From: a virus
DNA length: 49,010 bases
Virus record (IMG/VR): IMGVR_UViG_3300033145_000155
Strand: one strand, 5' to 3'
Part shown: positions 3,800 to 43,058 of the stretch, piece by piece
Numbering within the stretch: position 1 is the first letter of the stretch
How the letters are laid out: every line of letters starts with the position of its first letter
Translations under genes and position numbers: made by a program
The notes under the pieces: generated by a model
Database searches by the model: none
Told to the model about the DNA's origin: nothing
The model's input: only the letters and a program-made list of their open reading frames with translations

Positions 3800-5116
3800 A
3801 TGACAATTGAAGTAGGTATTGTAGGAATGATTCCAATCGAATCAATAGTTGTCTCAGACAGAGCTCGAGAGGTAATGGGAGATCTTAATGGACTAGAAGA
3901 CAACATGAAGGAAACTGGACTAATCTCACCACTCGCTGTCAAAGACAATGGCAATGGAATTTATAAACTTCTCGCTGGTGAACGTAGGTTTAACATACTT
4001 AAAAAGAACAAGGTTAAGGAAATCCCTGTTCGTATATATAACAAAACCTTATCTGAAATCGAGATGAAGATCATTGAGAAATCTGAAAACTTCTTCCGTA
4101 AAGATATGGAGTTCTGGGAGTTTGATAAACTCACCTTTGAAATCCATGAGATGCAGCAATCTATCCATGGTGTCAAAGCTCCAGGCCCTGGACAGGAAGG
4201 ATGGTCAACTGAAGACACTGGTGATATGATAGGTGGTGTGTCCAAAGCTACTGTGTCTCAATCTATTAAACGAGCTGAAGCACGTGAAGCCTTTCCTGAA
4301 CTATTTGATAATTGTAAGACCGCAGCTGATGCGACTAAGGTACTTAAGAAAGTTGATGAAGCCTTGATTAAACAAGCCATTGCACAAAAGCTTGAAGCGC
4401 AAAAGCCTTCTGGTACTCTTGGTCAATTATCAAAGTGCTACATCCTCAAGGATTTCTTTGAAGGTGTTAAGGAAATCCCTGATGGTATAATGCACTTGGT
4501 TGAGATAGATCCTCCATATGCTATTGAGCTAGGTAAGGCAAAGAAAGTTGAAGGGGAATCTCAATATCAATTAGATGACTATAGCGAAATTGATAAAGAC
4601 ACATATCCAGAATTCCTTTCCAATTTACTCAGTGAAACTTATCGAGTCATGGCTGAGCACTCTTGGCTTATCTTCTGGTTTGCTCCCGAGCCTTGGTTTG
4701 ATTTAGTTTATAAAGCTATCATAGAAACAGGCTTTGACTCAACAAGAATGTGCGGTATCTGGACTAAGCCTTCTGGTCAGTCCAAGCGTCCGGAGATGCA
4801 CTTGGCAAATAGTTATGAAATGTTCTTCTACGCATGGAAGGGTCGTCCAGCGCTGAACAAAGCTGGAAGATCAAACATATTTCAATATTCTCCAGTGCCT
4901 GCAATCCAGAAGACACACCCAACTGAACGTCCAATAGAATTAACAACTGACATTTATGATACCTTTGCTTTTCCAGGGTCTCGTATCTTAATCCCATTCC
5001 TCGGTTCAGGCAATGGATTGATTAGTGCACATCAACTGGGAATGTCTGCAGTAGGATTTGAACTAGGAAAAGGTCATAGAGACTCGTTCTTGGTTAAGGT
5101 TAACGAGATGAAATGA
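3800..5116 (+). CDS. ParB-like N-terminal domain fused to a beta-class N6A/N4C DNA methyltransferase
   Basis: ParB box LLAGERRF. Motif IV is EIDPPYA, followed later by motif I IPFLGSGNG. This order (IV before I) defines the beta class. Confidence 0.85.
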   Translation: MTIEVGIVGMIPIESIVVSDRAREVMGDLNGLEDNMKETGLISPLAVKDNGNGIYKLLAGERRFNILKKNKVKEIPVRIYNKTLSEIEMKIIEKSENFFRKDMEFWEFDKLTFEIHEMQQSIHGVKAPGPGQEGWSTEDTGDMIGGVSKATVSQSIKRAEAREAFPELFDNCKTAADATKVLKKVDEALIKQAIAQKLEAQKPSGTLGQLSKCYILKDFFEGVKEIPDGIMHLVEIDPPYAIELGKAKKVEGESQYQLDDYSEIDKDTYPEFLSNLLSETYRVMAEHSWLIFWFAPEPWFDLVYKAIIETGFDSTRMCGIWTKPSGQSKRPEMHLANSYEMFFYAWKGRPALNKAGRSNIFQYSPVPAIQKTHPTERPIELTTDIYDTFAFPGSRILIPFLGSGNGLISAHQLGMSAVGFELGKGHRDSFLVKVNEMK

Positions 5117-5288: not shown

Positions 5289-7799
5289 ATGAGAAGGACT
5301 TACGTACCTCCATCAGGAAACAAAGATGCTAAATTAGCAGGAGTTGGCGAACAGCCTGGCATGGAAGAGATTCGTTCACGGCCACCCAAACCTTTTGTTG
5401 GCCCTGCTGGACGTGGATTAGAAGAATGTCTTCAGATGACTAAAATAGTGCGCCGTGATCTTTACTTAACCAACGTAATCAAAGACCTTGACGCACCTCT
5501 CAAACATTACATAGACCTCGACAATCGTGGGAATCCAACTATCCACCCCGAAGGCTATCAATACATCCAGGAGCTTGCCGAGGAACTTAAATCCCTAAAC
5601 CTCAACGCCGTAATAGCCTTTGGCAACATTGCTTTACTCGCACTTACAAACCGTGTAGGGATAACCAAGTGGCGTGGGTCTGTCCTTGAATCTACCATTG
5701 TTCCTGGGCTTAAAGTAATCCCTACATTCCACCCTGCCACCTTCATCCCACCAAAGTTCAACTTCCTCAACAGACCTTTGATCTGCGAAGATTTACTCCA
5801 AGCTAAATATGAATCTGAGTTTAAAGAAATAGTTCGCCAACCTCGTGATATAACTGTCAGGCCCACATTTAATGAATCAGTTGATGTGTTAAACTATTGT
5901 TATGAAGCTGGACTGCGTGGCCAGACAATAGGTATTGATATTGAAGTTATCAATGGCGAGGTTGATTGTATATCTTTTGGATGGAACTCTGCTAACTCTA
6001 TCTCAATCCCCTTTCGTTATCAGCAAGGGGATTATTTCAATGTAGATCAAGAATTAGAAATAATGTTGCTTATCTCAAAGATTATCCAAGAGCCTCGGAT
6101 TACCAAGTGTGGTGCTAACTTCATATTTGATACACAGTTTATGTTTCACAAGTATGGCATTGTCCCTCGTGGTATATTACACTGTACACAGATTGCACAG
6201 AAGATTTCCTATCCAGACTTTCCTGCTGGACTAGACTTCGTAACCAACATGCATACAGACATCCCTTACTATAAACAAGATGGTAAACAATGGATGAAGA
6301 TGCAAGCTGGCACCTGGGAGCAATGGTGGAACTATAATGGCATGGACGCTATTGTTCCTGTTGAGGCTATACCTAAACAATTAAAGGTGCTTGAACACCA
6401 AGGTAACATTGAAACTTACGAACGTCAACGTAAGTTAATCAAACCTTTAATCTATATGTCCGAGCGTGGTATTAAACTTGATGTCCAAGGTATGATGGAA
6501 TACAAGGATGAACAACAGGCTGAGTTAGACATCCTCGCCGAAAATCTTAACAAGGAAGTAGGTTATGATATTAACTATAACTCGCCTAAGCAACTAATGG
6601 ACTACTTTTACAAAGAGTTAAAAATCAAACCTTATAAAAAGCGCAATGCTCAAGGTCAGTATAATAACTCAATAGATGTTGATGCACTCAAACGTATATC
6701 AAGGCAAGGTTATAAAGCAGCTCAGACCATGCTAGACATTCGTGGTCTTAGCAAGCGTATTTCAACTTATTTAAACATAGGAAAGGTGGATAAAGATGGA
6801 AGATATAGAAGTTCGTATAAGCCCGTTGGAGCTGAAACAGGAAGGCTCTCATCGGGTGAAACTATCTTTGGAACTGGAGGTAATCAGCAAAACTGGCCAC
6901 ACGATTTACTTCGATTTTTCCTCTTTGATGAAGGATATATCGGATACTCTTTCGATCTTAGTCAAATCGAAAATAGAATTGTGGCGTATGTTGGTGGAGT
7001 CCTCCCACAAATCGAAGCCTTTGGACAAGGAATAGACCTTCATCGTCTTACTGCTTCAATCATCTTCAACAAACCTTACGATCAAATTTCAGGTGAAGAT
7101 GGTTCTTCTGAACTTGGTGATGGTAGACAGTCCGAACGCTATTGGGGTAAGAAAGGTAATCACGCAATCAACTATGACATCGGCTATAAGAAATTTGCTC
7201 TTGTCAATGAGATGAATGAAACCGAGGCAAAGCAAGTTCTCGAAACAGTCCATCGTGGGTATCCTCAAATTCGAGGCGGTTATCAGATAATCATTCAAAA
7301 CATGCTTAAGAAAAATAGAATGGTTACAAACTTATACGGTCGTAATAGGTTATTCCTCGGCCCTATTATTCCATCCTATCCTGGCGTGCCAAAGGGTGCA
7401 TGTGAGAGTACATTCCGAGATGCTTATGCACATCTTCCACAATCAACTTGTGCTGACAAGATCAATGAACAAGGTATTGAATACATCTATTACAATCAAG
7501 ATTTATTCAAATACATTGAACTCCTTGCTCAGATACATGACTCGATTGTGTTTCAAGTTCCTTTGTCAATTCCCTGGGAAGAACATGCTAGGATGTTATT
7601 ACTAATTAAGCAATCGCTTGAACAGCCTATTTATTGGCATGGGACAGAGATTAAAACTCCATGTGATTTATCTATTGGTAAGTGTATGTGTAAGGACATG
7701 ATGATAGAATTGAAAAGTAAGGAAATTCCATCTGATAATGACTCATTAGCAACCAAACTAAAAATTATCTACAACACAATTAAAAATAATGGAAACTAA
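5289..7799 (+). CDS. Family A DNA polymerase with an N-terminal UDG-family-4-like domain and a 3'-5' exonuclease region
   Basis: UDG-like motifs GEQPGMEE...FVGPAGRGL and FHPATF. Pol motif A DLSQIENRIVA, motif B-like KKGNHAINYDIGY, motif C QIHDSIVF. Confidence 0.85.
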   Translation: MRRTYVPPSGNKDAKLAGVGEQPGMEEIRSRPPKPFVGPAGRGLEECLQMTKIVRRDLYLTNVIKDLDAPLKHYIDLDNRGNPTIHPEGYQYIQELAEELKSLNLNAVIAFGNIALLALTNRVGITKWRGSVLESTIVPGLKVIPTFHPATFIPPKFNFLNRPLICEDLLQAKYESEFKEIVRQPRDITVRPTFNESVDVLNYCYEAGLRGQTIGIDIEVINGEVDCISFGWNSANSISIPFRYQQGDYFNVDQELEIMLLISKIIQEPRITKCGANFIFDTQFMFHKYGIVPRGILHCTQIAQKISYPDFPAGLDFVTNMHTDIPYYKQDGKQWMKMQAGTWEQWWNYNGMDAIVPVEAIPKQLKVLEHQGNIETYERQRKLIKPLIYMSERGIKLDVQGMMEYKDEQQAELDILAENLNKEVGYDINYNSPKQLMDYFYKELKIKPYKKRNAQGQYNNSIDVDALKRISRQGYKAAQTMLDIRGLSKRISTYLNIGKVDKDGRYRSSYKPVGAETGRLSSGETIFGTGGNQQNWPHDLLRFFLFDEGYIGYSFDLSQIENRIVAYVGGVLPQIEAFGQGIDLHRLTASIIFNKPYDQISGEDGSSELGDGRQSERYWGKKGNHAINYDIGYKKFALVNEMNETEAKQVLETVHRGYPQIRGGYQIIIQNMLKKNRMVTNLYGRNRLFLGPIIPSYPGVPKGACESTFRDAYAHLPQSTCADKINEQGIEYIYYNQDLFKYIELLAQIHDSIVFQVPLSIPWEEHARMLLLIKQSLEQPIYWHGTEIKTPCDLSIGKCMCKDMMIELKSKEIPSDNDSLATKLKIIYNTIKNNGN

Positions 7800-7802
7800 A
7801 AT

Positions 7803-8996
7803 ATGCCTAATAATAGAAATCTCCCCGACTGGTTGGATAGTTTCATGCTCCTCACAGAGAACTCCGAGCCTCCATTACTCTTCCGTAAGTGGACTGCTAT
7901 TTCCGCTATTGCTTCCGCTTTGCAAAGAAAGGTTAGAGTGGAGCTTGGACTATCCCTTACTTTTTATCCTAATTTATACATAGTCCTTGTCGGCCCAAGT
8001 GCTACCGGCAAGGGTACAGCAATGAAGTATGCTTCAGACATTATTGAACAGGTTCCCTCAATTCGTCTAAGTGCTCAAGCTACTTCGCTTCAAGCTCTTA
8101 TTCGCCGAATGAAGGAGACTAACCTAACCGACATTGACTTGGCTACAGGTGACCAACAGTACCATTCATCGCTTACTATTTTCTCCACCGAATTTACTGT
8201 ATTCTTAGGTTATCATAACAAGGAATTAATTTCCGCTCTTTGTGAATGGTATGACTGTCATGAACGGTGGAGTTATGAAACCATAGCAAGGAAAAAGGAA
8301 GAGGTCATTGGAGTCTGGGTTAACATCCTTGCAGGGACAACTCCTGATGCCATTCAAAGTTCACTACCTATTGAATCCATAGGAGGTGGTCTAACTTCCC
8401 GCATCATCTTTGTGTATGAAGAGAAGAGGGAAAAGTTAGTCATCTTTCCTACGAAAACAGATGAAGAAATCCAGCTTCAACAAATGCTAATTAATGATCT
8501 GGAACAAATAAGTATGCTGTCTGGAAAGATGGAATATGGTTCTGACTTTGCTGAAGCTTACTCTGCATGGTGTTATAATGCAGATGAGAATCCTCCCTTT
8601 TATGATCCAAAGTTTGATGGTTACTGTGGTCGGCGAAGGAATCATTTAATATCCTTGTCAATGATCTGTTGTGCAAGTAGAACCGACAGCATGATTATGA
8701 CAGCTGAGGATCTTGCAAGGGCTTCTGAATTCTTACTTGGAGCGGAAGTTAAAATGGGCAAGGTTTTCAGAGGTATGGGCAAAAGTGATATCTCATCTTT
8801 GATCAATGATGCTATTGTGTTCATTGAGAATTCAATTACTAAGGAAATCCCTGTTTGGCAATTTGCTAGACAGTTCGAAGGTAACATGGATAAGTTTATT
8901 ATGGACAGAGTTTTGTTTACATTGGAGGCTAGCAATTATATTAAGATAGTGAAAAGGCCTGGGACTGACACTTTGATAACCATATTAGATCGTTAA
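7803..8996 (+). CDS. P-loop NTPase, possibly a DUF3987-like replicative helicase or primase-associated protein
   Basis: Walker A VGPSATGKGT. Sits directly after the polymerase. The family guess is from memory only. Confidence 0.45.
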   Translation: MPNNRNLPDWLDSFMLLTENSEPPLLFRKWTAISAIASALQRKVRVELGLSLTFYPNLYIVLVGPSATGKGTAMKYASDIIEQVPSIRLSAQATSLQALIRRMKETNLTDIDLATGDQQYHSSLTIFSTEFTVFLGYHNKELISALCEWYDCHERWSYETIARKKEEVIGVWVNILAGTTPDAIQSSLPIESIGGGLTSRIIFVYEEKREKLVIFPTKTDEEIQLQQMLINDLEQISMLSGKMEYGSDFAEAYSAWCYNADENPPFYDPKFDGYCGRRRNHLISLSMICCASRTDSMIMTAEDLARASEFLLGAEVKMGKVFRGMGKSDISSLINDAIVFIENSITKEIPVWQFARQFEGNMDKFIMDRVLFTLEASNYIKIVKRPGTDTLITILDR

Positions 8997-9011
8997 ATTG
9001 TTAAACGATCT
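8987..9011. repeat. PE25 copy 4, at a convergent gene junction
   Basis: AGATCGTTA-AATTGTT-AAACGATCT. Overlaps the stop codons of both convergent genes. The 23-mer 8992-9014 is identical to 16783-16805. Confidence 0.85.
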
Positions 9012-12000
9012 TATTGACCACTCCTTAATTTTCCAACCTCCTCTCTAAATCCAGGAGACATGACACCACCAGCTTTAATAACTGTCCCTAATTCTTCATA
9101 CAGTTCTTTACGTTCCTCATCTGAAGCAGAGTTAAGTCTGTCAACATAAACCTTGGCTCTCGCTTCAGTTGTAAGACCTTTCAACCGTAACCAGAAAGTA
9201 CGATTAGGTAATCCCTTTATCTTTTCTTGGAATGTGAATCTATCCTTAAGTCTATCATATGTATCCTTGTCTTTAAACTCCCTCATATAATCTATAACTT
9301 CTTTCCTACTTACATTATCCTGATAGAGGTAGCCTTCAACTCTCATATCCAGCCCACGATTCTGAATCCATCTTTGAATATCACTTGCTTCCTTAGCCTC
9401 ATCTATCTTCTCTCCATATTGTGAGTAAGGATTAGTTACACTAAAGAATCTTTTAATAATAGGTATCTTAGACAATACCATTGCAAGGTGCTGTTCTTTC
9501 TTGTTCTTAGGAAGATCACCAAATGATGCATCGTAGCCTTGACCAAGTAAATAAGACCATAGTGTTCCACTGGTTGTTAATTCCTCTATCATATACTTAG
9601 TGCGTTCAGGAGACATCCCAGTTGCTTCACCAAAATCTATAAATGTTTGAGGTGTTTGACCAGGAATATATTCCTCTTTACTTTCTGGCCAACTAAAAGG
9701 TTTATCAGACTTCCTCCAAATATCTTCATTCATCCAGAAGTCTTTATTAGTAACATATCCAAGCGTTCCACTAATAGTAGGTGGCAACTCAGTTACCCCA
9801 ACAGGGCTTTGCTCCTTAAGTGAATCAACTATTCTATTAACATCTACTTCATTGCCAAGCCATTTATCTACACTACCTTCAAAGAATGTTTTGAAGAACT
9901 TCTGACCAGGGTCAATAGGTATTTTAATATAAGGATACCTCATCTGACCATGCTCATCTTCAAATCCAAAGTCGTCACCTAAAGTAAGACAAAGATTATT
10001 TTGTTCATCTATATTTCCTTTAAGTGCTTGTGAACTTTTTGGATGCATCTTGTTCTTAGCTATATAAAGGCCAGCTACCAATGCACCAAACTGTGCAAGT
10101 TTATAAGTAGAGCTTAAAGCTGTCCCACTCCCTGGTTTGAAAGATCTAAACAATCCTCTTGTACCTACAACAGCTGCATTAAGATAAGGAAAAGCATTAT
10201 CAGCTGCTTTAGTAATCCCTCCACCCTGACCAAAGTCCATATAGTCTCTTGCAGCAAATGTAGCTTCCTGTGTAATCTTTGGATTTTTATTAGCTTCTTC
10301 AAATGTAAGGCCTTGTTCCTTTGCACGATTTCTAATAACCCTATCTCTAATTGCCAGCCTAGTCATTATCTCAGACGTCTCACCAAAGTAACCTAAGAAA
10401 TTATATATAGCATCTATTGATCCTTCAACATGCCTACCACGTTGGAGTAGTCTACCTTGGTGAACAAGAAATTCCATCCCTCCACCTTCTTCAATATACT
10501 TTTCATAACGTCCCTTGCGAAGCGCTGCATCTGTAAGTATAGTTGCTAAGTCCCTACCTATCTGCAAACCAAATACTGGCATGTGAGGACTATAAACAGA
10601 TGTCCATTTTCCATCTTTAAATTCCCTAGCAGCAAACCAAGTATGCAATACATCTCTTGGTAAATTAGCCAACGCAAATCCCCAGTTAATACCAGTAGCA
10701 AATGTCCTTAACACTGGTGATGCACTAGCATACCTCAACACCTGCCCCATCTTATAACTTATCTCTGGGTTATTAGTTATCCACTCCTTTGACATTTCAG
10801 GTGAGATATAAAGTTCCTGGCGCTTACCTTTTTCATACACTAAAATTCGATGCCATCCAGTTGGTATCATATCCTTTGGGTCTTCTTTAATCCTAACAAA
10901 GGGATTAGTATTATCAGCCTTTGCAACTTCAAGCAAACTTAGATTAGCTCTATTATTCAATATACGTCCATAAGATCTATTAAATACTTCAAGAGCCATA
11001 ATCTCACTTGAGGATTCATAGATGTCAGTCTCCTTACCTTTTGACAAAGCCTCAACACCTGAACTGTAAATAGTTCTATCAGTCTTCTTCAATTTTGGGA
11101 CTTGTTTATCGTAGATTTCTACCAACTTAATCCTTCGATAGTTATGTGAAATAAGTGCATCATATTCTTGTTCAGAAATCAACTCAGCATCCAACAAATC
11201 TTTCAATGGTTTCTTCATCCAATCAAAGTATGCTCCAACTTTACCCCCCACACTTCCATCGTCCTTTAAATGATATAAGTTGTAAGCCTCAGCATCTGTA
11301 TAATCTCTCACTCCATTAACTTTTTTATATTTAAATATCTCCATTCTAGCAGCACATTCAGCTGGGGTATATCCTTCTGGATAGGCAAATTCTTTAGGTA
11401 ACTTGTACTTACTTATATCCAACATCCTTACTGACAATGCTAAGGTATCAAATACTATCTTATCACCTTTACTCATTCCACTGTAAGCTTCCTTCCTCAT
11501 CTGCTTTAACATATTGGCCGAGAGTGAACTAGCTCCTTTGGATAGGTACATCCTCTGTATTATATCATAACCTACATCACCAAGAGCTTCAAGCAACTTA
11601 CCACGGATATTTCCTGAACGGTCTACAAATGAACGATTAAAGTTTTCTCTTAACATCTGAGCAGCTTCTTTAGGTCTGAAAGCTTTCATCCCCTGAGATT
11701 TTCTTACATAGTCAAAACCTTTCCTAGCCCCTTCAATTAACTGCTTAGCACCTTCACCTGCTGCACCTGTAATGTCGTAGAGTTTGGTTGGTTCAGATCG
11801 TTTTGGAATTAAACGATCTGCTTTATCTAACCCTATCCCATACTTATCAAGTAATACATTTTCCTTTAACGGCCTCTTTGTCTTTTCAAATGTAAGGAAT
11901 TCTGAGTGAGCAATTCTAGGTATCCTTTGCTCTCCTCCCTTTAAATCCACTAAAAGACTACCTTTATTCACATACACAAACTTACCTAAATATCTCATAC

Positions 12001-14710
12001 CATATTTAGTAGCAAACCTTTTTATATAATCAGACACAGGAATATTATATGACCTAGCTTTATCATACCCTTTCATTGTAGATACTCTTTCTCCTGTAGA
12101 CTTAGATATGTCTTGAATTTTAATAGTTACCCTACCATAAGGCTTTAATACCCTAGCAAACTCTTTCATAGCTCCATCATGATAAGCTAGTAATGCATCT
12201 AAGCTTTCAAAACCTCCAAATCTTTTTGCCATTGTAGGTATCTGTTTACCAACAACTAAATATGGAGGATCACTTATTATTGAATTTATAGATTGATCAT
12301 CAAGAGGTATATGTTTAGATACATCAGCCTTTATTGTGTCTTTAGTCTGAGGTACTTTATCCATCTTAATTATAGGTCTTATTTCATTAGGTAGATTTTT
12401 CCATATTTTACCAGAGCTATAATTTACATCTAAGTCTACCTTACCTTTATGCATTAGGTTTATAATATTAGATAATAACTCATCATGGTTCTTACTCCAT
12501 GACTTAATTACTTTCTTAATATTTTTAGATGCTTGAGTTGGGTCTACCCCTGAATATAAGGTATTGCTACTATCATCTTTTATAATATTATCTACTGCAT
12601 CTAAAGTGGACAAATCTAAACGCTCAGTTCGTTTGACATCCAAACGATCTGCATTCCTTGCCCACTCCGCAGCGTCACTAACCGTCTCCTTCCAAACATT
12701 GAAGTCTTCACCTTTATCAAACTTATCTCTAACTTCATCAGCCCTTATAGCTAATTCACTAAGGTGATTCCTAATCTCTTCAATAGGAAGTTCTTCTCCA
12801 TTAAGCCATCTATTAACATCGTTGATTAGCTTACCAGTAAATAAGTCAGGGTCTCCCAAAACATTCTTAATTCGCTCTTTGTAAAGTTTATGTAATGTAT
12901 TAGTCTCTTCAACTGACTTGTCACGGAAAGGTGATTGGTCAGTGGATAATTCAGCAGGTTTAGGAGTACCTGTTTGAGTATCAAGTTCGGTGGTAAGTTC
13001 TTCACCTTTAGGTTTAATTCCTCTTGACCTTTCAAGCTTTTCCCACTGTTCTTTCACAGTCATCTTGTTGATTTCTTTGACTGGATAACCAGCTCGATTA
13101 AGTTCATGTTTTTCATCTTTGGTTAACTTAACTTCTTCTAATATATGCTTAAGTCTTTCTATATCTAACTTACTATAATCTGTTTTACCTTGTAACATAC
13201 TCTTGTCAGTAATTTCCCTATACTTATTAAAGAACATTGATCCCTCTTCTGTAAATACATCTGGAAAGGTATCAATCTTATCAGCAAGCCCACTACTTAA
13301 AATATAGTTATGAATACTTGTCATTATACCTTTTCTTTGATATTCTTTTAATGTATGTAAACCTTCTGTATAGGCTACATTATCATATATAGATACGTCT
13401 GCAGATCCAACTATTTTTTCTCCAATCTTTGCCTGTATTTTAAATTCTTTAGGGTCTTTAGTACTAATTACATTATAAGATATTTCTTCACCTTCAATCT
13501 TTTCTTTCTTTGTTTTCTTCTTTGCCTTCTTTTTTGCCTCAATTTTTTTCTCCTTGATTAAGTCTTGGCCAGTAGTTACTTTTTTCTTAACAGCCTTTTC
13601 TTTCTTAATCTCCTTAACCTTCTTCCCTTTCTCCTTCAAATCACCTTTTACTACACTCTCAGTATCTATATTCTCATTCAGTTTTCTTGCTTCAAGTTCT
13701 GCTTGTACCTTTTCAACATCTAAGACTTTCTGCTGTGCTGCTTTAACTACTTCATCAGGAATCCTATCAATCTCTTTTTGTTTAATAACTATTTTCTCAG
13801 CCTTATCCAAAATAGGCTTAGCGTCCTTTGCATATTGTTCATGACCTCCTTTGTATGTCCTACCCATGACAACTATTCCAACAACATCAGCTATAAAATG
13901 CAAAGCTCCTCTAACATTAGGCATGTATTCAAACATGTCTAACTCAGCCAATGTATGAATAGGCGTTGATGCAGCTGTGTAAGGTGCCATGCCTATCTCA
14001 CCTATAATAGCACTATAGTCTGTAGGTTCTTTCTCTCCACCTTCACCTACAGCTTTCTTACTTAAATACTTACCAAAGGTCATAGGTGATTGTAGTAATC
14101 TATCAAATGGTGCAACTATACTCTCATGCCATCTTCCCGCACCTTTCTCCATTCCTTTACTAGCAGCTTCATAAAGATCAAGGAGAGTGAAATCCTCTGA
14201 CTTGAGTATCCTAGAACCCATCTCCTTTGATGTTTCAACAGCTGCAGACAATGCACCTTGAGCAAATCCAGGAAGGGACATAGCAAAGGTAAGTGTCCCT
14301 CTCACAGCATCATAAGGATTCTTAGCCATTCCCCACAGTTGGTTAAGCGCTTCCATTGCACCACGCTTATCATCATCTGTCATGGTAGGAGGTTGGAATA
14401 AAGTAGAATCAGTAATACCTTCTCCAAAAGCCATCTCACCTACCTTTTCATAGAAAGGCTTTGGTGCAGCCGAGATCATCTGATTCATTATATGAGGATC
14501 TTCATATAAGTCAGAAACAGGTGCAGTCGAAGCTTCGAATTTAGGGACAGGAGCAAGCAACTCAGGTTGCGGCTGCCTGAGGAGGTCAAGCCCGGAAGTT
14601 ACTTGACCTCGGCCTTGACCCTGTCCCTGTTTCAGTAAATCCATTTCAGATTGTTTTGTTATTAAACGATCTGATTGTTCACCCCTTAATAAATCAAGAC
14701 CTGACGGCAT
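9011..14710 (-). CDS. Giant multidomain (polyvalent-type) virion/internal protein, ~1,899 aa, with a GNAT-like module and a DPPY methyltransferase-like module
   Basis: Start set at the MPSGLDLL ATG at 14710 (SD GGAGGAA 8 nt upstream). GNAT-like region HTLKEYQRKGIMTSIHNYIL. MTase-like region SIISDPPYL...RVLKPYGRV...AHSEFLTFEK. It is the last gene of the structural operon, after internal-protein-like genes. Confidence 0.75.
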   Translation of the reverse strand: MPSGLDLLRGEQSDRLITKQSEMDLLKQGQGQGRGQVTSGLDLLRQPQPELLAPVPKFEASTAPVSDLYEDPHIMNQMISAAPKPFYEKVGEMAFGEGITDSTLFQPPTMTDDDKRGAMEALNQLWGMAKNPYDAVRGTLTFAMSLPGFAQGALSAAVETSKEMGSRILKSEDFTLLDLYEAASKGMEKGAGRWHESIVAPFDRLLQSPMTFGKYLSKKAVGEGGEKEPTDYSAIIGEIGMAPYTAASTPIHTLAELDMFEYMPNVRGALHFIADVVGIVVMGRTYKGGHEQYAKDAKPILDKAEKIVIKQKEIDRIPDEVVKAAQQKVLDVEKVQAELEARKLNENIDTESVVKGDLKEKGKKVKEIKKEKAVKKKVTTGQDLIKEKKIEAKKKAKKKTKKEKIEGEEISYNVISTKDPKEFKIQAKIGEKIVGSADVSIYDNVAYTEGLHTLKEYQRKGIMTSIHNYILSSGLADKIDTFPDVFTEEGSMFFNKYREITDKSMLQGKTDYSKLDIERLKHILEEVKLTKDEKHELNRAGYPVKEINKMTVKEQWEKLERSRGIKPKGEELTTELDTQTGTPKPAELSTDQSPFRDKSVEETNTLHKLYKERIKNVLGDPDLFTGKLINDVNRWLNGEELPIEEIRNHLSELAIRADEVRDKFDKGEDFNVWKETVSDAAEWARNADRLDVKRTERLDLSTLDAVDNIIKDDSSNTLYSGVDPTQASKNIKKVIKSWSKNHDELLSNIINLMHKGKVDLDVNYSSGKIWKNLPNEIRPIIKMDKVPQTKDTIKADVSKHIPLDDQSINSIISDPPYLVVGKQIPTMAKRFGGFESLDALLAYHDGAMKEFARVLKPYGRVTIKIQDISKSTGERVSTMKGYDKARSYNIPVSDYIKRFATKYGMRYLGKFVYVNKGSLLVDLKGGEQRIPRIAHSEFLTFEKTKRPLKENVLLDKYGIGLDKADRLIPKRSEPTKLYDITGAAGEGAKQLIEGARKGFDYVRKSQGMKAFRPKEAAQMLRENFNRSFVDRSGNIRGKLLEALGDVGYDIIQRMYLSKGASSLSANMLKQMRKEAYSGMSKGDKIVFDTLALSVRMLDISKYKLPKEFAYPEGYTPAECAARMEIFKYKKVNGVRDYTDAEAYNLYHLKDDGSVGGKVGAYFDWMKKPLKDLLDAELISEQEYDALISHNYRRIKLVEIYDKQVPKLKKTDRTIYSSGVEALSKGKETDIYESSSEIMALEVFNRSYGRILNNRANLSLLEVAKADNTNPFVRIKEDPKDMIPTGWHRILVYEKGKRQELYISPEMSKEWITNNPEISYKMGQVLRYASASPVLRTFATGINWGFALANLPRDVLHTWFAAREFKDGKWTSVYSPHMPVFGLQIGRDLATILTDAALRKGRYEKYIEEGGGMEFLVHQGRLLQRGRHVEGSIDAIYNFLGYFGETSEIMTRLAIRDRVIRNRAKEQGLTFEEANKNPKITQEATFAARDYMDFGQGGGITKAADNAFPYLNAAVVGTRGLFRSFKPGSGTALSSTYKLAQFGALVAGLYIAKNKMHPKSSQALKGNIDEQNNLCLTLGDDFGFEDEHGQMRYPYIKIPIDPGQKFFKTFFEGSVDKWLGNEVDVNRIVDSLKEQSPVGVTELPPTISGTLGYVTNKDFWMNEDIWRKSDKPFSWPESKEEYIPGQTPQTFIDFGEATGMSPERTKYMIEELTTSGTLWSYLLGQGYDASFGDLPKNKKEQHLAMVLSKIPIIKRFFSVTNPYSQYGEKIDEAKEASDIQRWIQNRGLDMRVEGYLYQDNVSRKEVIDYMREFKDKDTYDRLKDRFTFQEKIKGLPNRTFWLRLKGLTTEARAKVYVDRLNSASDEERKELYEELGTVIKAGGVMSPGFREEVGKLRSGQ
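11795..11819. repeat. PE25 copy 5 (intragenic, perfect arms)
   Basis: AGATCGTTT-TGGAATT-AAACGATCT. Read on the minus strand it encodes DRLIPKRS. Confidence 0.85.
12626..12650. repeat. PE25 copy 6 (intragenic)
   Basis: AGTTCGTTT-GACATCC-AAACGATCT. Encodes DRLDVKRT. Confidence 0.75.
14648..14672. repeat. PE25 copy 7 (intragenic, near the 5' end of the giant gene)
   Basis: AGATTGTTT-TGTTATT-AAACGATCT. Encodes DRLITKQS. Confidence 0.8.
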
Positions 14711-15812
14711 ATCTAACTTCCTCCATATCTCCAGATGGCCATTCAACTGTCCAAATTATAGTCTTACCATCTTCAGCCCATTTAACTTCTTTAATCTTTC
14801 CACCACCGGCAGTGATCTTATCTTCAATAAACTGTACTTTAACCTCAGAAGTTTTTTGCTCTTGTTCACCGGTCTCCATCCTAAACAATTCATTTTGAAC
14901 TTCATCAGAACTCATATATTTATTAAGGTCTTCAGTCCACTTAGGATCTTTGAAATAAGTCTGACCTTTTAATCCAGCCTTAGCTTTTATCTCAGTTAAT
15001 TTCTCTCCAAGAGTCAAACCACCACCAAGAGCTGTAATGTCTCTAAGCCATGTATTGAAATCTGGCTCAGTGTCATTAGGTCCTCTATAACCACCTGCTA
15101 CAGCCTCTTCATAATCCTTCTTATGGCCAGTCCAAGCAGAGTTTTGATACTCTTCAAAACTACCTTTAAATGAACCACCTGCTTCAGTTTGAGCATATTC
15201 GTAATTTTTAATAGCATTTGTACGCTCATCCTTATTTGCAGACTTATACCAATCAAGGTATTGCTTAGTAGTCAATTTAATATCTGTCCCAGGTATAGTA
15301 ATTGAAGGCGTCTTCTCACCAATTAATGCATCATAGTAATCCATCATCTTCTGCTTATACAATGTATCAGACACATCACTAACCTTTTTCTGTCTCAATG
15401 CCTCGACACTTTGAGCACCACTAAGGGCACTGGAAATGTCTTGAGGTGTCAGGCCAGCCAAATCGGCACCTGAGATACTTGGCTGACTAGAAACGAAAGG
15501 GTTTGCCATTCCTCCTGGTTGCTTGATAGGAGCAAGACTTTGATCTGGGGTGAACATGCTACCTCCAGACAAAGTGCCAAGAGCAGAAGCTGGAATATCC
15601 ATCTTTATTCCATCTTTACTAATTGCCCCTTTTGTATCATCAGGGCCTAGCATCTGCTGTAACAGCTTCATGTAATTCTGTGCAGCGATGTTCTGCATAG
15701 TAACTTTATTCACATTAGCTCCTATTGGCTGACCAGCTCCAATGTCCTGTCCTGCAGCTGCAAGATACTGCAAGAACATTTTGTTTTGCATGAGATTTTC
15801 TAAACCTTCCAT
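14694..15812 (-). CDS. hypothetical structural protein (372 aa), possibly an internal virion/ejection protein
   Basis: SD GGAGG. Sits between a Gly-rich membrane-like protein and the giant protein. Confidence 0.6.
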   Translation of the reverse strand: MEGLENLMQNKMFLQYLAAAGQDIGAGQPIGANVNKVTMQNIAAQNYMKLLQQMLGPDDTKGAISKDGIKMDIPASALGTLSGGSMFTPDQSLAPIKQPGGMANPFVSSQPSISGADLAGLTPQDISSALSGAQSVEALRQKKVSDVSDTLYKQKMMDYYDALIGEKTPSITIPGTDIKLTTKQYLDWYKSANKDERTNAIKNYEYAQTEAGGSFKGSFEEYQNSAWTGHKKDYEEAVAGGYRGPNDTEPDFNTWLRDITALGGGLTLGEKLTEIKAKAGLKGQTYFKDPKWTEDLNKYMSSDEVQNELFRMETGEQEQKTSEVKVQFIEDKITAGGGKIKEVKWAEDGKTIIWTVEWPSGDMEEVRYAVRS

Positions 15813-17244: not shown

Positions 17245-18653
17245 TATTTTTGTCCTCGCAACGAGCTAGGTGGAGAATATACTCCTCTTATCCCTCTTAA
17301 GTCAGTCATTTTAAATCTTATCTTAATATATTTTATAGGTGAAATAACTGCAACGTAATCAAAGTTTAACCTAACTACAAATTCATTCCCTGAGGCAGTG
17401 ATAGCTGCAATCCCTTCATTGTTTAAAGGTACTTCACTTGTATATCCCCAGACATCTAATGTATTAGCCCAGCCAATAGCTGCTTTAGCACCAAAGGTAA
17501 TTAAAGTATCTGATTCAACCGAACTAATTGTTTTCTGTCCTCGATAACCAAGGTCGAATATTGTAGTGGTTAGTGAAGGTATATAGTCATCAACTGTGTT
17601 GGGTAACATAATTAGTTCATCATCGTAATTACTCATAGTCCATAATGCAGAAGGGTGCTGTGGAACTTCTGTTAATCCATAAGGGGAAAGTAAGAAAGTT
17701 TTCTTACTATTACCAATATAAAAGTCATTCTTAATTCGATCATACTTAACAATTATATCTTCATTTTCATCTTCAAGGTCTTTCATATATCTATAATATC
17801 CAAGTTCTTTAATTCCTTTACTCGTCATTTCCCTTATTATATAATCAGTGCCTACAAACACATGACGTCGGAGGTCTCCATCAATAGCGCCACGGTTAAC
17901 TAGTCCAACGTCCTCCAACTCAGTAAATCCAAAGGTGGTAACAGGACTACCAACAGGCCTTAACATTGTAATCCCTTTAGATGAATAACCTATTACATTG
18001 TCACCTAATCGTCTAACATGGTAAACCTTCCCACCATAAGGACAACGTCGATAACCTGCTTCATTCTGTCTATCAGGTGTAAAGTCCATTTCACCAATCT
18101 TAGACCAGCAATAGAATGCCTCATCACAGTCATGCCATGCACTTACTATGCCTCCACCTACTGCTTGACCCTTAAAGTTACACACAGTTCTCATCATGGG
18201 AATAGTTGCACTTGCAGCTACTTCATGCCAGTCTCCTAATCCCACATCCCAATAGATCATAATAACTCCATTGGTCATAAAAGCGTAAAGGCCAAAGTCT
18301 GCAACTTCCATCAAAGACCCAATGCCAAAGGTTAATTCATCTATATCAAATATATGAGTGGCTACATAATCATCTGAAATTAAATATACCTTATCCTCAT
18401 GGTTGAGTAAAGCATCTCTGATGATTAAGAAGTTATATTTTTCACCTACAATAAACTGTGGGAATGGCCAAGAGTATTCCATGTCAACTACACCAACCAA
18501 AGGATCATCATCTGAAATTTTATATCCTTCAAGGTCATTCTTACCTACACGAAATCCAAGACATTCAAACAACCACTCATCGTTCACTGGTATAGAACGT
18601 TCAGGGCTAAGACCTTTTTTTAAAGAATCTATAGTTAATTCATATTCACGCAT
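17244..18653 (-). CDS. hypothetical structural protein (469 aa), possibly tail tubular/nozzle
   Basis: Size and position in the structural operon only. Confidence 0.5.
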   Translation of the reverse strand: MREYELTIDSLKKGLSPERSIPVNDEWLFECLGFRVGKNDLEGYKISDDDPLVGVVDMEYSWPFPQFIVGEKYNFLIIRDALLNHEDKVYLISDDYVATHIFDIDELTFGIGSLMEVADFGLYAFMTNGVIMIYWDVGLGDWHEVAASATIPMMRTVCNFKGQAVGGGIVSAWHDCDEAFYCWSKIGEMDFTPDRQNEAGYRRCPYGGKVYHVRRLGDNVIGYSSKGITMLRPVGSPVTTFGFTELEDVGLVNRGAIDGDLRRHVFVGTDYIIREMTSKGIKELGYYRYMKDLEDENEDIIVKYDRIKNDFYIGNSKKTFLLSPYGLTEVPQHPSALWTMSNYDDELIMLPNTVDDYIPSLTTTIFDLGYRGQKTISSVESDTLITFGAKAAIGWANTLDVWGYTSEVPLNNEGIAAITASGNEFVVRLNFDYVAVISPIKYIKIRFKMTDLRGIRGVYSPPSSLRGQK

Positions 18654-19152
18654 AGTAACCCTCTCTACATAAATACTTATCTGAATTCCATATTCTAAGA
18701 ATTGTTGAACGGCTTACTTTAAACATCTTAGATACATAAGAAGCTGAGAATTTATATCTTTGATGGCGAAGATACATTCCTTTGTCTACAGGAATACACA
18801 GTTTTCTAATCAGCCATATCTCACCTTCATGAAGCTTTAATTGACCTCCTCCTCGATTAAATAGATTCCTTTTTGCCCTATCCATATTATTGTCTCCATA
18901 AGTTCCACAGTACAAATGCTTAGGATTAACACATTTTCTATTATCACATTTGTGAAGAATTAGTTTACCTTTTGGTATAGGGCCATTAACAATTCTCCAA
19001 GATACTCTATGAGCATAATCCAACTTTTCACTAACACTGAATTGTCCATATCCATTAACTATATACGCTTGCCATTCCCAACAGTCATCTTCACCTTTAA
19101 CATCTACCTTAGCCCAAAATCTTTCCAATAGTCTTTGAGATAACTCCCTCAT
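18646..19152 (-). CDS. HNH homing-type endonuclease
   Basis: HKCDNRKCVNPKHLYCGTYGDNNMD (HNH_3-type motif). Confidence 0.8.
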   Translation of the reverse strand: MRELSQRLLERFWAKVDVKGEDDCWEWQAYIVNGYGQFSVSEKLDYAHRVSWRIVNGPIPKGKLILHKCDNRKCVNPKHLYCGTYGDNNMDRAKRNLFNRGGGQLKLHEGEIWLIRKLCIPVDKGMYLRHQRYKFSASYVSKMFKVSRSTILRIWNSDKYLCREGYYA

Positions 19153-20919: not shown

Positions 20920-20944
20920 AGATCGTTTAATTATTAAACGATCA
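20920..20944. repeat. PE25 copy 9
   Basis: AGATCGTTT-AATTATT-AAACGATCA. The core GATCGTTTAAT-T-ATTAAACGATC is a perfect 11-bp-arm palindrome. Confidence 0.85.
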
Positions 20945-20954
20945 TTTATAATAA

Positions 20955-20994
20955 GCTGTGAGGTAAGGGAAAGGAGTAAACCTTACCCCACAGC
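20955..20994 (-). terminator. Stem-loop terminator candidate downstream of the major capsid gene
   Basis: 14-bp stem with one mismatch (GCTGTGAGGTAAGG / CCTTACCCCACAGC) and a 12-nt loop. On the minus strand it is followed by an A/U-rich run. Confidence 0.55.
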
Positions 20995-32812: not shown

Positions 32813-32885
32813 TTTTATCTCCTTAGTTTTTCTCTGTTCTAAACAATTCTTGATAAACACCACCTCTGCATATGAGTATTTAGTT

Positions 32886-35030: not shown

Positions 35031-35534
35031 TTAATCAAAACTCCATATGTAGATTAGACGGTTTTGAATAGATATTATTTTAACTGGGTTAATATTAGAT
35101 GTCCATTGACTTATGTCGTCCTTTGATATATTGTGGACTTTGTTATCTTTCCATTTATAAGGAAAAGATAAAATAGCATTATAGCTTATCCTTTTTACTT
35201 CTTTAAATGCATCAACTTGATTACTTAAATGTTCCCATACTTGAAGAGCTATAAACAGATCAAACTGCTTATCTTTCACTGGATAAGGAACATTGTTTAA
35301 GTCATGGATTATTTCCTTATGTCCTAAGTTTTTAGGTCTTAATTCTATAATGGTTGAATCATCAGACATATACATGCCTTCTGAGCCAGCTTCGCATATT
35401 GAAGAAGGTTGGATAGTCTTTATTTCATCAATTACTAAAGACATATAATCCCACCTAGCACTATTCCCATGTTGGTAGTAAGGAGAGCCTTTAGCTATTT
35501 CATCGTACTTTGATTTAGTTAATAGATTATCCAT
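35031..35534 (-). CDS. class I SAM-dependent methyltransferase-like protein
   Basis: ICEAGSEG (motif I-like) and FDLFIALQVWEHL (Methyltransf_11/23-like). Confidence 0.55.
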   Translation of the reverse strand: MDNLLTKSKYDEIAKGSPYYQHGNSARWDYMSLVIDEIKTIQPSSICEAGSEGMYMSDDSTIIELRPKNLGHKEIIHDLNNVPYPVKDKQFDLFIALQVWEHLSNQVDAFKEVKRISYNAILSFPYKWKDNKVHNISKDDISQWTSNINPVKIISIQNRLIYIWSFD

Positions 35535-37926: not shown

Positions 37927-37961
37927 CTAAACATTTTCATGGAGTTGCAAACATTAAGGAA

Positions 37962-37998
37962 AAGGGCAGTGGTTTAATTATCACTGCCCTTTCTTTTT
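37962..37998 (+). terminator. Rho-independent terminator
   Basis: AAGGGCAGTG, 10-nt loop, CACTGCCCTT, then TCTTTTT. Confidence 0.8.
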
Positions 37999-40997: not shown

Positions 40998-41022
40998 AGT
41001 TTGTTCAATCATTAAACAATCT
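40998..41022. repeat. PE25 copy 18
   Basis: AGTTTGTTC-AATCATT-AAACAATCT, followed by TAAAGAAAGGAGG as in copy 1. Confidence 0.7.
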
Positions 41023-43011: not shown

Positions 43012-43026
43012 GTAAGTAAAACTAAG

Positions 43027-43058
43027 ACCTCCTGGTGTAAAGCCAGGAGGTTCTTTTT
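43027..43058 (+). terminator. Rho-independent terminator
   Basis: ACCTCCTGG, 7-nt loop, CCAGGAGGT, then TCTTTTT. Confidence 0.8.

Follow-up and report, generated by a model that had tools for sequence, protein, structure and literature searches.

The window analysed here, by which we mean the whole stretch of 49,010 nucleotides, belongs to a phage with a podovirus-like genome that is distantly related to LUZ24-like phages. Its minus strand carries a giant gene, identified from the open reading frame list and its translation, whose product is identical to the database protein P0001; Megablast of this gene against GenBank phages returned no match. The gene closes a structural operon, and a neighbouring gene shows faint similarity to the P22 gp7 ejection protein. 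BLASTP comparisons with 25 homologs divided the protein into block A (aa 1-415), slot 1, block B (aa 570-687), slot 2 and block C (aa 973-1899). The features of the locus, including three in-frame copies of a short palindromic element, are the following.

9011..14710, minus strand: giant gene, 1,899 aa plus stop codon
14648..14672, minus strand: in-frame copy 1, DRLITKQS, aa 14-21, in an N-terminal "slot 0" between two SGLDLL leader repeats
13298..13462, minus strand: GNAT acetyltransferase match in slot 1, aa 417-471 (Pfam PF00583, E=4.7e-5)
12626..12650, minus strand: in-frame copy 2, DRLDVKRT, aa 688-695, where conserved block B ends and slot 2 begins
11820..12625, minus strand: slot-2 cassette, aa 696-964, 269 aa, between copies 2 and 3
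11849..12523, minus strand: predicted DPPY (motif IV) Rossmann-fold amino-methyltransferase core, P0001 aa 730-954 (AlphaFold2)
11795..11819, minus strand: in-frame copy 3, DRLIPKRS, aa 965-972, closing slot 2 directly ahead of the block C leader TKLYDITG
8987..9011, no strand assigned: element copy between the convergent 3' ends of the primase gene and the giant gene

An earlier note, made from the sequence alone, had placed copies 2 and 3 in the same frame of the 1,899-aa ORF, and direct reading gives exactly this. The window letters of copy 2 are AGTTCGTTTGACATCCAAACGATCT, read on the gene (minus) strand as GAT CGT TTG GAT GTC AAA CGA ACT, and those of copy 3 are AGATCGTTTTGGAATTAAACGATCT, read as GAT CGT TTA ATT CCA AAA CGA TCT. 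Copy 1, which the note had listed as a third in-frame copy, is likewise translated; the N-terminus MPSGLDLL, which precedes it, does not vary among 14 homologs, and this establishes that the copy is indeed coding. Two further copies were found where the note had located them, one at 32905-32927, read as DRLTIKQS within the last 14 codons of a 548-aa weak glycosyltransferase-like ORF, and one at 46143-46165 inside ORF 45964-46341, where the frame differs from the DRL frame and reads KFVQQLNDL. Copies of the element thus occur inside three different ORFs of the window. The common frame of the in-gene copies is not independent evidence, because the sequence largely forces it: around the consensus centre AAT-N-ATT the other two frames meet TAA (T8A9A10 and T15A16A17), and the sole generally stop-free frame is GAT CGT TTx ... 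AAA CGA xCT, or D-R-L-x-x-K-R-S/T. Having one such frame, the element can reside within a gene, where it codes for a hydrophilic linker.

The consensus of the element is A-GATCGTTT-N7-AAACGAWC-T, with 19-20 copies in the window. Scanning the whole window for GATCGTTT-N7-AAACGATC with at most three mismatches detected 19 copies against 0.16 expected, a number that 0 of 100 shuffles attained; the 20th copy, at 40999-41021, is weaker. The clade-standard form is a 25-bp quasi-palindrome, A-GATCGTTTAAT-N-ATTAAACGAWC-T. Since 158 of 159 unique copies, drawn from the window and its relatives, have the A at -1 and the T at +24 although neither belongs to the search pattern, the 25-nt unit is real. Most copies are intergenic.

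20921..20943, minus strand: best intergenic copy, a perfect 23-bp palindrome, GATCGTTTAAT-T-ATTAAACGATC
Intergenic copies, about 15 in all: cores at 1009, 2764, 5248, 16779, 22346, 23645, 28481, 35003, 37047, 38158, 39630, 40999 and 43098

In the typical intergenic layout, the upstream stop codon lies 0-13 nt before the element or inside it, and a Shine-Dalgarno sequence and start codon follow 12-24 nt past it. At 8987..9011, the primase TAA lies inside the element and the TAA of the giant gene directly abuts it; L001, L004, L005 and L010 have a copy likewise placed after the giant gene. A host-derived motif was dropped from consideration, the exact palindrome being found in none of 185,579 bacterial and archaeal genomes. 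GATC is mildly depleted in the window (0.65), and because 118 of its 138 sites lie outside elements there is no special link between the two; GATC-centred readings (Dam, restriction) were rejected. Rfam gave no match in the window at the gathering threshold.

The earlier note had argued that a full palindrome kept inside coding sequence implies selection at the nucleic-acid level, and a codon test on 30 motifs picked by peptide pattern alone strongly supports this. Arg2 was CGT in 30/30 motifs (13% in the background), Arg7 was CGA or CGG in 18/18 (8%), and Leu was TTR in 23/23, Lys AAA in 19/19 and Thr ACT in 22/22. Further comparison revealed lineage variants, GTTCAA..TTGAAC in L002 and L076, coding DRS..E, and GACCGTTTAAAAATTGAAC in L007, and by the listed sequences each variant is found in intergenic and in-gene copies alike. 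Because each lineage keeps its own variant, the in-gene copies are maintained rather than decaying. The peptide shifts with the variant, from L to S and from K to E, and in L002, L003, L004 and L006, where the DNA element has decayed, the peptide has decayed as well. Judged by these sequences, the element is a clear case of a regulatory-type DNA motif that constrains protein sequence, with the peptide tracking the DNA variant. The same results make it quite improbable that the conserved feature is the peptide D-R-L-x-x-K-R-S/T itself, acting as an inter-domain linker, maturation-protease site or packaging signal, with the DNA likeness secondary: codon choice is fixed well past what the peptide needs, the peptide alters with the lineage variant and is not kept where the element decays, and the same DNA stands about 15 times outside genes. 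Such a peptide would nevertheless fit the motif that follows WAR where block B ends, a motif recognisable in many homologs down to about 30% identity, and the placement of element-coded peptides in low-confidence, probably flexible segments of the AlphaFold2 model; processing of polyvalent proteins into units is also expected (PMC5512222).

The giant gene encodes a polyvalent-type multidomain protein built of cassettes, within a structural gene block. Its cassettes each carry a KLYSGIDP-like leader, often with an element before the leader. The GNAT match in slot 1 scores above the Pfam curated cut-off and represents a second variable cassette, which in the window is without recognisable flanking element copies; it is missing in P0004, P0005, P0006 and P0010 and 99% identical in P0002. 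An LPD38 match in block C (E=1.1e-3) reached 19.6 bits against a cut-off of 27; LPD23 exceeded its cut-off in the homolog P0002 and fell short of it in P0006 and P0008. At the position of window copy 1, P0006 carries an SLT lysozyme-like cassette. Polyvalent proteins are recognised by at least two distinct effector or enzymatic domains in a single, very large polypeptide; the 1,899 residues combine GNAT with the DPPY methyltransferase, and homologs add SLT.

The slot-2 cassette consists of a 36-aa leader with NTLYSGVDPT, the methyltransferase core and a tail of 10-16 aa. That a DPPY methylase-like region lies between the two copies, as the earlier note had read from the letters, was confirmed by PHROG 24333 "DNA methyltransferase" (E=5e-23, aa 739-957 in TTG numbering) and by homologs. 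An exhaustive HMMER search produced 420 library matches, mostly stand-alone proteins of 200-220 aa comprising the core only, which align to residues ~45-260 of the 285-aa bracketed piece; cassette homologs in other giants are distant (30-34% identity). A word-indexed homolog search with the cassette alone returned nothing, and phmmer found no match to it among PDB sequences. AlphaFold2 with a 59-sequence alignment gave pLDDT values of 80-98 over fragment residues 71-295 and values under 50 in two stretches that overlap the element-coded peptides, residues 32-42 and 307-325; the single-sequence run gave no confident fold (pLDDT 35). By PHROG, stand-alone homologs and the AlphaFold2 core, then, the domain boundaries coincide with the element positions. 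The top Foldseek matches were the Trm11 m2G tRNA MTase, TTHA0409 (a putative DNA methylase), an N4-cytosine MTase and CcrM, with probability 1.0 and TM-scores of just 0.26-0.35 normalised to the query, so that the nearest structural neighbours mix tRNA and DNA enzymes. The window sequence has DPPY, and the D155-P156-P157-F158 columns are conserved in the 59 homologs. The modelled core thus displays the motif IV and Rossmann fold that characterise (D/N)PP(Y/F) class I SAM-dependent amino-methyltransferases; Pfam N6_N4_Mtase scored below its cut-off on the cassette (20.6 against 26.7 bits).

If the bracketed segment is a module, it should be present or absent in relatives as a unit, and this is borne out. 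P0003 aligns to query aa 520-696 and 964-1899 with flanks 77-87% identical, and because the two alignments overlap on a single ADRLDVKQTE, which read from the protein is one junction copy, P0003 is without exactly the bracketed segment (about aa 697-963). Slot 2 is also empty at the DNA level in L007, L073 and L008. In L011 (protein P0004), whose flanks share 62-67% identity with the window, the same two junction copies enclose an unrelated PF01555 methylase, a cassette that could not be aligned to that of the window. Across relatives, slot 2 ranges from 0 to ~650 aa with differing content, including LPD23, and the slot-1 cassette of L004 is bracketed by two identical DRLKIERP copies. Both junctions are traceable individually: copy 2 has orthologs with the same D-V centre in P0003, P0004/L011 and P0010, copy 3 is 88.6% identical over 44 nt to an internal junction copy of L010, and homology to P0003, P0006, P0011 and L009 begins at aa 964-965, that is, at copy 3. 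The two bracketing copies share only a ~29-nt repeat with a variable 7-nt centre, and their flanks are unrelated. A repeat of this length is short for homologous exchange.

Among 47 giants compared, 473 homology break points fell within 10 aa of in-frame copies, against 86.5 expected under uniformity, a count to be read with the pairs being non-independent. Other break points lie away from element copies, namely a 47-aa indel and a switch at aa 527 in the comparison with L010, where identity is 95.9% up to that residue and 73% beyond it in block B; further on, slot 2 is unrelated in L010 and block C is 78-80% identical. One gene-sized indel in L010 abuts the element copy past the giant gene. 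Sample 3300033150 contains this mosaic L010 together with L087, which is window-like. L009 is too distant for blocks A and B to be traced. A split of the giant gene at an element in L044 was considered and rejected, the break being a frameshift inside block C and not at a junction. By alignment, the slot is thus shown to be empty, to hold a cassette of the same kind or to hold an unrelated one in different relatives, with breaks at the copies. The same kind of domain without flanking elements, named beforehand as evidence against the module, occurs in the more distant giants P0018, P0021, P0024 and P0029, whose homologous methylase cassettes are flanked by KLYSG[IVL]DP leaders, with no recognisable DRL motif beside the cassette; what is actually exchanged on may therefore be the peptide leader, or a different process may be at work.

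Chance meeting of two palindromes with a domain has next to no probability as an account of the bracketing. Nothing speaks for it other than that few copies lie in this one gene; 19 copies stand against 0.16 expected, the pattern is repeated in independent lineages and break points are enriched at copies; the copy excess, the empty slot of P0003 and the flanking copies of L011 refute this account. Rickettsia palindromic elements are 100-150 nt long and tolerated in frame in protein genes at unrelated insertion sites. A selfish mini-insertion of this type, spreading wherever an open frame is tolerated (linkers), would match a short palindrome with one open frame and copies in three different ORFs. 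We regard it as very improbable, given that no known mobile unit is as small as 25 nt, that the ORFs searched contain neither a transposase nor a RAYT-like gene, that positions are fixed relative to stop and start codons, and that the copies occupy orthologous module junctions, rather than sporadic or unrelated sites, across lineages sharing 30-60% identity.

It is possible, and we entertain it tentatively, that the in-gene copies are live expression signals, leading to internal transcripts or translation starts and to sub-genic products such as block C alone. The match with cassette boundaries would then be due to in-frame fusion of once separate genes, and the copies might be read by a promoter-recognition factor, by a dimer binding an operator or at the mRNA level. 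Among in-gene copies of relatives, 17/37 have an in-frame ATG downstream at +4 to +37, TGG or TGGAG comes after many, and GGAG stands after some; L005 has a fusion-like anatomy, element-TGGAG-11 nt-ATG GTT GGT ATT GAT CCT. Signals of this kind are also consistent with intergenic copies lying between a stop codon and the SD or start, with in-gene and intergenic copies co-varying per lineage, with the better conservation of the upstream half-site, a polarity with respect to transcription, and with the three predicted strong terminator-like hairpins of the window (20973-20989, after the capsid gene, 37961-37992 and 43026-43052), each of which has an element copy 30-170 nt further on, as re-initiation predicts. 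On the other hand, both copies that bracket the methylase in the window are without an SD and without a downstream in-frame ATG. No element copy was reported by a sigma-70 scan of the whole window; five have a central TATAAT yet no -35 at 16-18 nt, and just 3/20 pass a terminator-like scan. The ORFs searched include no phage RNA polymerase. The closest GenBank phage, a Desulfofustis phage with the same gene order, has a different 23-bp palindrome, CTATGTCCCAA-W-TTGGGACATAG, in 9 copies, none of them in its giant gene, and the GC-rich centre of this palindrome is unlike any -10 box. Taken as a classical signal, the element does not qualify as a sigma-70 promoter, nor do most of its copies qualify as intrinsic terminators. 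The expression-signal reading and cassette exchange at the element are compatible, not exclusive.

A selected RNA or DNA hairpin was not supported either. Predicted RNA hairpins of element copies range from -1.8 to -12.5 kcal/mol with A/T-rich arms, the weakest belonging to an intergenic copy, and in the pair table of 159 copies, pair 2 is an A.A mismatch in 48% and pair 4 shows no compensatory excess. Our search for a trans-acting factor returned only a weak HTH-like match in a 172-aa ORF (36315-36833), which does not resemble the regulator annotated in the Desulfofustis phage. Integrase and recombinase families gave no match among the ORFs searched, many small ORFs remaining unassigned; the recombination genes of the window are a Sak4-like SSAP and an exonuclease.

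Short in-frame motifs that bound exchangeable modules have parallels. In the T4-type tail-fibre adhesins gp37/gp38, Trojet et al. (2011) reportedly described shuffling at His-box and glycine-rich motifs. These are short, lie in frame and delimit hypervariable segments, and are thought to be intragenic recombination points; they are protein-level and gene-specific, whereas here a genome-wide intergenic DNA element fixes the codons. Integron attC sites are imperfect palindromes that flank promoterless cassettes, as the element flanks its cassettes, but they are 57-141 nt long and untranslated, while the element has 25 nt and is translated, and no integrase was found among the ORFs searched. The earlier note had compared the element with the promoter-early stem-loops (PeSLs) of T4-type phages, whose definition combines a consensus sigma-70 promoter (-35/-10) with a GC-rich hairpin terminator; PeSL-like sequences were also seen separating the two parts of split gene 43 (Arbiol et al. 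2010, PMC2839356; Comeau et al. 2014, PMC4122927). The likeness of role stands: both are short repeats with dyad symmetry found intergenically, just upstream of the SD or start of many genes, and both flank segments inserted, deleted or replaced between relatives. Membership does not, because the promoter-plus-terminator features fail, the element having neither a consensus promoter nor a stable terminator stem-loop, and the comparison is thus an analogy. PeSLs are, moreover, intergenic, whereas the element is also translated in frame and delimits domains, not genes, and the phage families are unrelated (T4-type versus podovirus-like).

The ESAS of Cluster K mycobacteriophages are imperfect inverted repeats directly upstream of the ribosome-binding region of a gene subset, with 17-bp arms and a 4-13-bp spacer, and are linked to a 13-bp SAS, GGGATAGGAGCCC, located at the start codon; only non-structural genes have them, and their function is given as unknown (Pope et al. 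2011, PMC3203893). In both systems the left (upstream) repeat matches the consensus more closely than its right counterpart does, and the consensus varies by sub-lineage, but sequence and dimensions of ESAS are unlike those of the element, which we do not assign to them, and there are no reports of ESAS inside coding sequence or at domain junctions. Phages and conjugative elements encode polyvalent proteins, which are mosaic multidomain giants (Iyer et al. 2017, PMC5512222). The giant protein resembles them in its GNAT and methyltransferase domains (SLT and LPD23 in homologs), its extensive mosaicism and its weak match to LPD38, which that paper lists as phage-specific. Cassette-type recombinational variability is raised there for one polyvalent system; a DNA element or repeated leader at domain junctions is not described in the passages searched (PMC5512222), and here the junctions are defined at the nucleotide level.

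We consider it probable that the normally intergenic element, in its only generally open frame, serves as an exchange junction for domain cassettes. The giant gene would then consist of exchangeable domain cassettes strung along a conserved scaffold, blocks A, B and C, with an element at the junctions that ordinarily fills the gap between an upstream stop codon and the next Shine-Dalgarno sequence. The ancestral B-C junction may have held one element copy followed by a KLYSGIDP-type leader, and the methyltransferase cassette with its own leader now lies between two copies at this junction. Exchange, we infer from the sequence comparisons, would proceed by recombination between copies, that is, between short repeated junctions (element plus leader) during co-infection, and the phage's Sak4-like annealing protein and exonuclease may help; no recombination product, circle or population variant was observed. 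The earlier note had seen in the bracketing the scar of a module inserted by recombination between element copies. Its cassette reading is supported by the comparisons, the recombination step stays at the strength just given, and "scar" is too passive a word for copies that are maintained. In-gene copies may stay intact because the reader of the intergenic copies still recognises them, and a dimeric DNA-binding factor or the transcription machinery would be the most plausible reader, because all copies co-vary by lineage. It is unlikely that the element is the site of a phage-encoded, co-evolving factor that actively promotes in-frame cassette exchange, directly or via a recruited nuclease or annealing system. 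If true, the phage would possess, for its counter-defence payload, an integron-like diversification system working at the domain level, in which the junction site doubles as intergenic expression signal and translated linker.

As part of a polyvalent-type protein whose gene lies beside ejection-protein-like genes, the small DPPY methyltransferase would plausibly be delivered with the DNA and would then modify nucleic acid at an early stage of infection. Phages and plasmids are believed to use polyvalent proteins as a payload against host defences, and the domain mosaicism of these proteins is well known, whereas the mechanism of the domain swaps is not; here, the cassette junctions are readable at nucleotide resolution, and the element with its repeated leader is a concrete, testable substrate for domain shuffling. 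The element rule could also locate cassette boundaries in metagenomic giant proteins. The uncultured podovirus-like clade to which this phage belongs carries a family of lineage-specific 23-25-bp intergenic palindromes.

Scanning the 49 kb for GATCGTTT-N7-AAACGATC with up to three mismatches identified 19 element copies in the window, against 0.16 expected, and a relaxed scan added a 20th at 40999; about 15 copies are intergenic. When the window and related contigs were taken together (159 unique copies), the bases flanking the searched core were A in 158/159 and T in 158/159. Because these near-invariant bases lie outside the search pattern, the 25-nt unit is real and not a search artefact. 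Sequence and translation placed the two copies bracketing the methyltransferase-like region where the earlier note had located them, both in frame with the long minus-strand ORF (the giant gene). A third copy, described there as in-frame, is truly coding: the upstream N-terminus MPSGLDLL is identical in 14 homologs, which sets the start of the giant gene at the ATG at 14710 and its length at 1,899 aa.

In-gene copies of the element in the giant gene
14648-14672, minus strand: copy 1, read as DRLITKQS
12626-12650, minus strand: copy 2, A-GATCGTTT-GGATGTC-AAACGAAC-T on the gene strand, read as DRLDVKRT
11795-11819, minus strand: copy 3, A-GATCGTTT-AATTCCA-AAACGATC-T on the gene strand, read as DRLIPKRS

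The shared frame of these copies is weaker evidence than it appears, because on direct reading the consensus centre, AAT-N-ATT, brings the two remaining frames to TAA. Two further copies had been assigned to genes. The copy at 32905, read as DRLTIKQS, indeed falls within the final 14 codons of an ORF weakly resembling a glycosyltransferase; that at 46143 is inside a 125-aa ORF, but its frame differs from that of the ORF. Directly upstream of the latter ORF is a small ORF (45560-45961) with a HIRAN domain (E=1.3e-8). Copy 32905 is followed by a good SD (GAGGTAAGGA; 32863-32905) and an ATG at +16. The 805-aa pectate-lyase-like ORF, whose listed start is a GTG at +41 that lacks an SD, is in a different frame from this ATG; a frameshift, an incorrect start or a short upstream ORF could account for this. 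At 43098-43137, the right half of a copy is partially repeated in tandem behind it (ATTAAACGATCTTTAATATTAAACGATCTTTAATAT), and lone half-sites occur at 38317 and 38409.

BLASTP comparison with 16 database homologs and 9 viral contigs resolved the giant protein into a conserved scaffold interrupted by two variable slots.

Scaffold of the giant protein
aa 1-415: block A, conserved scaffold
between blocks A and B: slot 1, variable, GNAT in the window
aa 570-687: block B, conserved scaffold
aa 696-964: slot 2, variable, methylase in the window
aa 973-1899: block C, conserved scaffold

The GNAT match spans aa 417-471, and the methyltransferase matches PHROG 24333 (E=5e-23). The C-terminal 930 aa are conserved, with a weak LPD38 match, and LPD23 and SLT domains were found in homologs.

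The bracketed segment is present or absent as a unit. In the database homolog P0003, whose flanks are 77-87% identical to the window, alignments with aa 520-696 and aa 964-1899 overlap on a single ADRLDVKQTE; exactly the inter-copy stretch is therefore missing and one junction copy is kept. Slot 2 is also empty at the DNA level in the contigs L007, L073 and L008. In L011 (= P0004; flanks 62% and 67% identical), an element copy lies at each slot-2 junction (GATCGTTTGGATGTTAAACAATC, with the D-V centre of the window, and GTTCGTTTAATTGATAAACGAAC), and the methylase in the slot belongs to PF01555 and shows no alignment with the cassette of the window. In further relatives, slot 2 holds 85 to ~650 aa of other content. 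L010 has two cassettes there, separated by a copy 88.6% identical over 44 nt to window copy 3; slot 1 of L004 is flanked on both sides by identical DRLKIERP copies, and P0006 carries an SLT cassette at the exact position of window copy 1. Among the 47 full-length giants, homology break points lay no more than 10 aa from an in-frame copy in 473 cases, where a uniform distribution would give 86.5; the figure is descriptive only, as the pairs are non-independent. The methylase is a cassette that is missing or replaced in relatives, with element copies at the cassette junctions and break points at the copies.

Compared with L010, the window (13132-15042; 8850-8996) is sharply mosaic: identity is 95.9% from the upstream gene through block A to the GNAT cassette, drops to 73% for block B, stands at 78-80% for block C and returns to 95.2% in the primase 3' end. 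L010 also has a ~195-nt insertion (6283-6481, versus window 8984-8996) holding, on the opposite strand, an 81-aa ORF that has an SD of its own. The insertion begins right after the element copy 3' of the giant gene, ends at a sequence that partly repeats the right end of the element (ACCGATCT), and looks like a gene-sized indel adjoining an element copy.

The domain boundaries agree with the element positions. With the bracketed piece (285 aa) as query, an exhaustive HMMER search retrieved 420 relatives, mostly stand-alone proteins of 200-220 aa matching query residues ~45-260 end to end, with a dozen inside other giants of ~2,000 aa. AlphaFold2 (59-sequence alignment) predicted a confident core (pLDDT 80-98) at aa 730-954 of P0001, the database protein identical to the giant protein, also between the copies. 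The pLDDT fell below 50 exactly over both element-coded peptides, which is only suggestive because the alignment is shallow outside the core. Foldseek related the core to (D/N)PP(Y/F) Rossmann amino-methyltransferases, namely Trm11, the putative DNA methylase TTHA0409, an N4-cytosine MTase and CcrM. The giant-protein cassette (11849-12523) is one of three methyltransferase-like genes or domains in this phage, the others being a ParB-N + N6_N4_Mtase fusion (3800-5116) and a small Methyltransf_11 ORF (35031-35534). Across the window, CGCG is strongly depleted (3 observed versus 17.7 expected), and CTAG (0.53), GATC (0.65), GTAC (0.72) and CATG (0.73) are under-represented.

Selection on the in-gene palindromes at the nucleic-acid level, as the earlier note supposed, is strongly supported by codon usage in motifs picked by peptide pattern only (DR[LS]xx[KE][RQ][ST]; 30 unique contexts; background from the same genes).

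Codon choice in the in-gene motifs
Arg2: CGT, 30/30 (background 13%)
Arg7: CGA or CGG, 18/18 (background 8%)
Leu: TTR, 23/23 (background 45%)
Lys: AAA, 19/19 (background 49%)
Thr: ACT, 22/22 (background 52%)

The peptide also tracks each lineage's DNA variant: L002 and L076 have intergenic GTTCAA...TTGAAC copies and in-gene DRS..E, and L007 has GACCGTTTAAAAATTGAAC both between genes and in the giant gene. At the end of block B in L002, L003, L004 and L006, where the DNA element has decayed, the peptide is likewise unconserved, which argues for selection, or homogenisation with other copies, at the DNA level. The in-gene copies are thus under DNA-level constraint, as maintained sites rather than decaying scars. 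The copies may also be internal regulatory sites, the alternative raised earlier, which is compatible with the cassette model.

Between genes, promoter and terminator scans ruled out a sigma-70 promoter or typical terminator; no Rfam family matches the element, and none of 185,579 bacterial and archaeal genomes contains it. A selected hairpin is unsupported: 48% of copies have A.A at pair 2, pair 4 shows no compensatory excess, and the hairpin of one copy has only -1.8 kcal/mol. The element is polar, with better conservation in the half on the side of the upstream gene. Its best copies form perfect 11-1-11 palindromes, the pattern expected of a site bound by a protein dimer. Three predicted strong terminator-like hairpins (20973-20989, 37961-37992, 43026-43052) are each followed within 30-170 nt by a copy (20921, 38158, 43098), which would fit a re-initiation signal; the hairpin at 20973-20989 directly follows the capsid gene, and that at 43026-43052 is bidirectional. 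Desulfofustis phage LS06-2018-MD01 (L089, OP947158) shares the window's gene order, lacks its element and has its own 23-bp palindrome, CTATGTCCCAA-W-TTGGGACATAG, at nine mostly intergenic sites (245, 2247, 7684, 15470, 23055, 29966, 37109, 41277, 42973), none within its giant gene. Together, these properties point to a putative lineage-specific trans-acting reader co-evolving with its sites. The only lead is ORF 36315-36833, a candidate by its weak helix-turn-helix matches (Sigma70_r4_2, GerE); it is the first gene of a long minus-strand operon, downstream of a sigma-70-like promoter (37020-36992) and copy 37047.

The element resembles PeSLs in role, but the promoter and terminator features that define them (PMC2839356) are not found in it. 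In intergenic architecture it resembles the ESAS of Cluster K mycobacteriophages, for which the same upstream-half conservation bias was reported (PMC3203893). The literature searched describes no intergenic palindrome that occurs genome-wide and, translated in frame, forms the junction of domain cassettes.

At the start of each cassette, and of block C, is a leader similar to the N-terminus of the protein itself (MPSGLDLL): NTLYSGVDPT after copy 2, TKLYDITG after copy 3, and KLYSGIDP, LNMMIPVD or LTMGIDP in relatives. An in-frame ATG lies at +4 to +37 after 17 of the 37 in-gene copies of relatives, many of which are followed by TGG or TGGAG; the L005 junction reads element-TGGAG-11 nt-ATG GTT GGT ATT GAT CCT. 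This is the layout of intergenic copies, which have a stop codon 0-13 nt before or within the element and an SD and start 12-24 nt after it. Neither SD nor ATG remains after window copies 2 and 3.

Cassettes may be exchanged by recombination between short repeated junction sequences, possibly assisted by the phage's Sak4-like annealing protein and exonuclease. Several observations speak against this, however. The common repeat is only ~29 nt with unrelated flanks; the 95%-to-73% identity switch versus L010 occurs at aa 527, away from element copies; and a window-only 47-aa segment (12985-13131, aa 528-575, VKLTKDEKHELNRAGYPVKEINKMTVKEQWEKLERSRGIKPKGEELT), missing in L010, has no copy at either edge. 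More distant giants, moreover, have KLYSG leaders on both sides of a homologous methylase cassette (30-34% identical) and no recognisable DRL motif next to it, so the leader may be as important for exchange as the palindrome.

The giant gene is the last of the structural operon in a podovirus-like genome. Also encoded there are a portal, a capsid protein and a large terminase, as well as a DUF3987 primase and a family A DNA polymerase. The polymerase (5289-7799) has a UDG-like domain of the uracil-DNA-glycosylase superfamily, which is N-terminal (aa 7-153) and precedes a 3'-5' exonuclease domain; an HNH endonuclease gene (18646-19152) within the structural operon overlaps the start of a 469-aa gene. 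In GenBank, the closest relative is Desulfofustis phage LS06-2018-MD01, with a capsid that is 50% identical, LUZ24-like phages being far more distant. The giant-gene product is a polyvalent-type protein, fitting the class of Iyer et al. 2017 (PMC5512222), and the simplest reading of its cassettes is that they are, or were, gene-like units with a standard element-SD-start-leader head, fused in frame.
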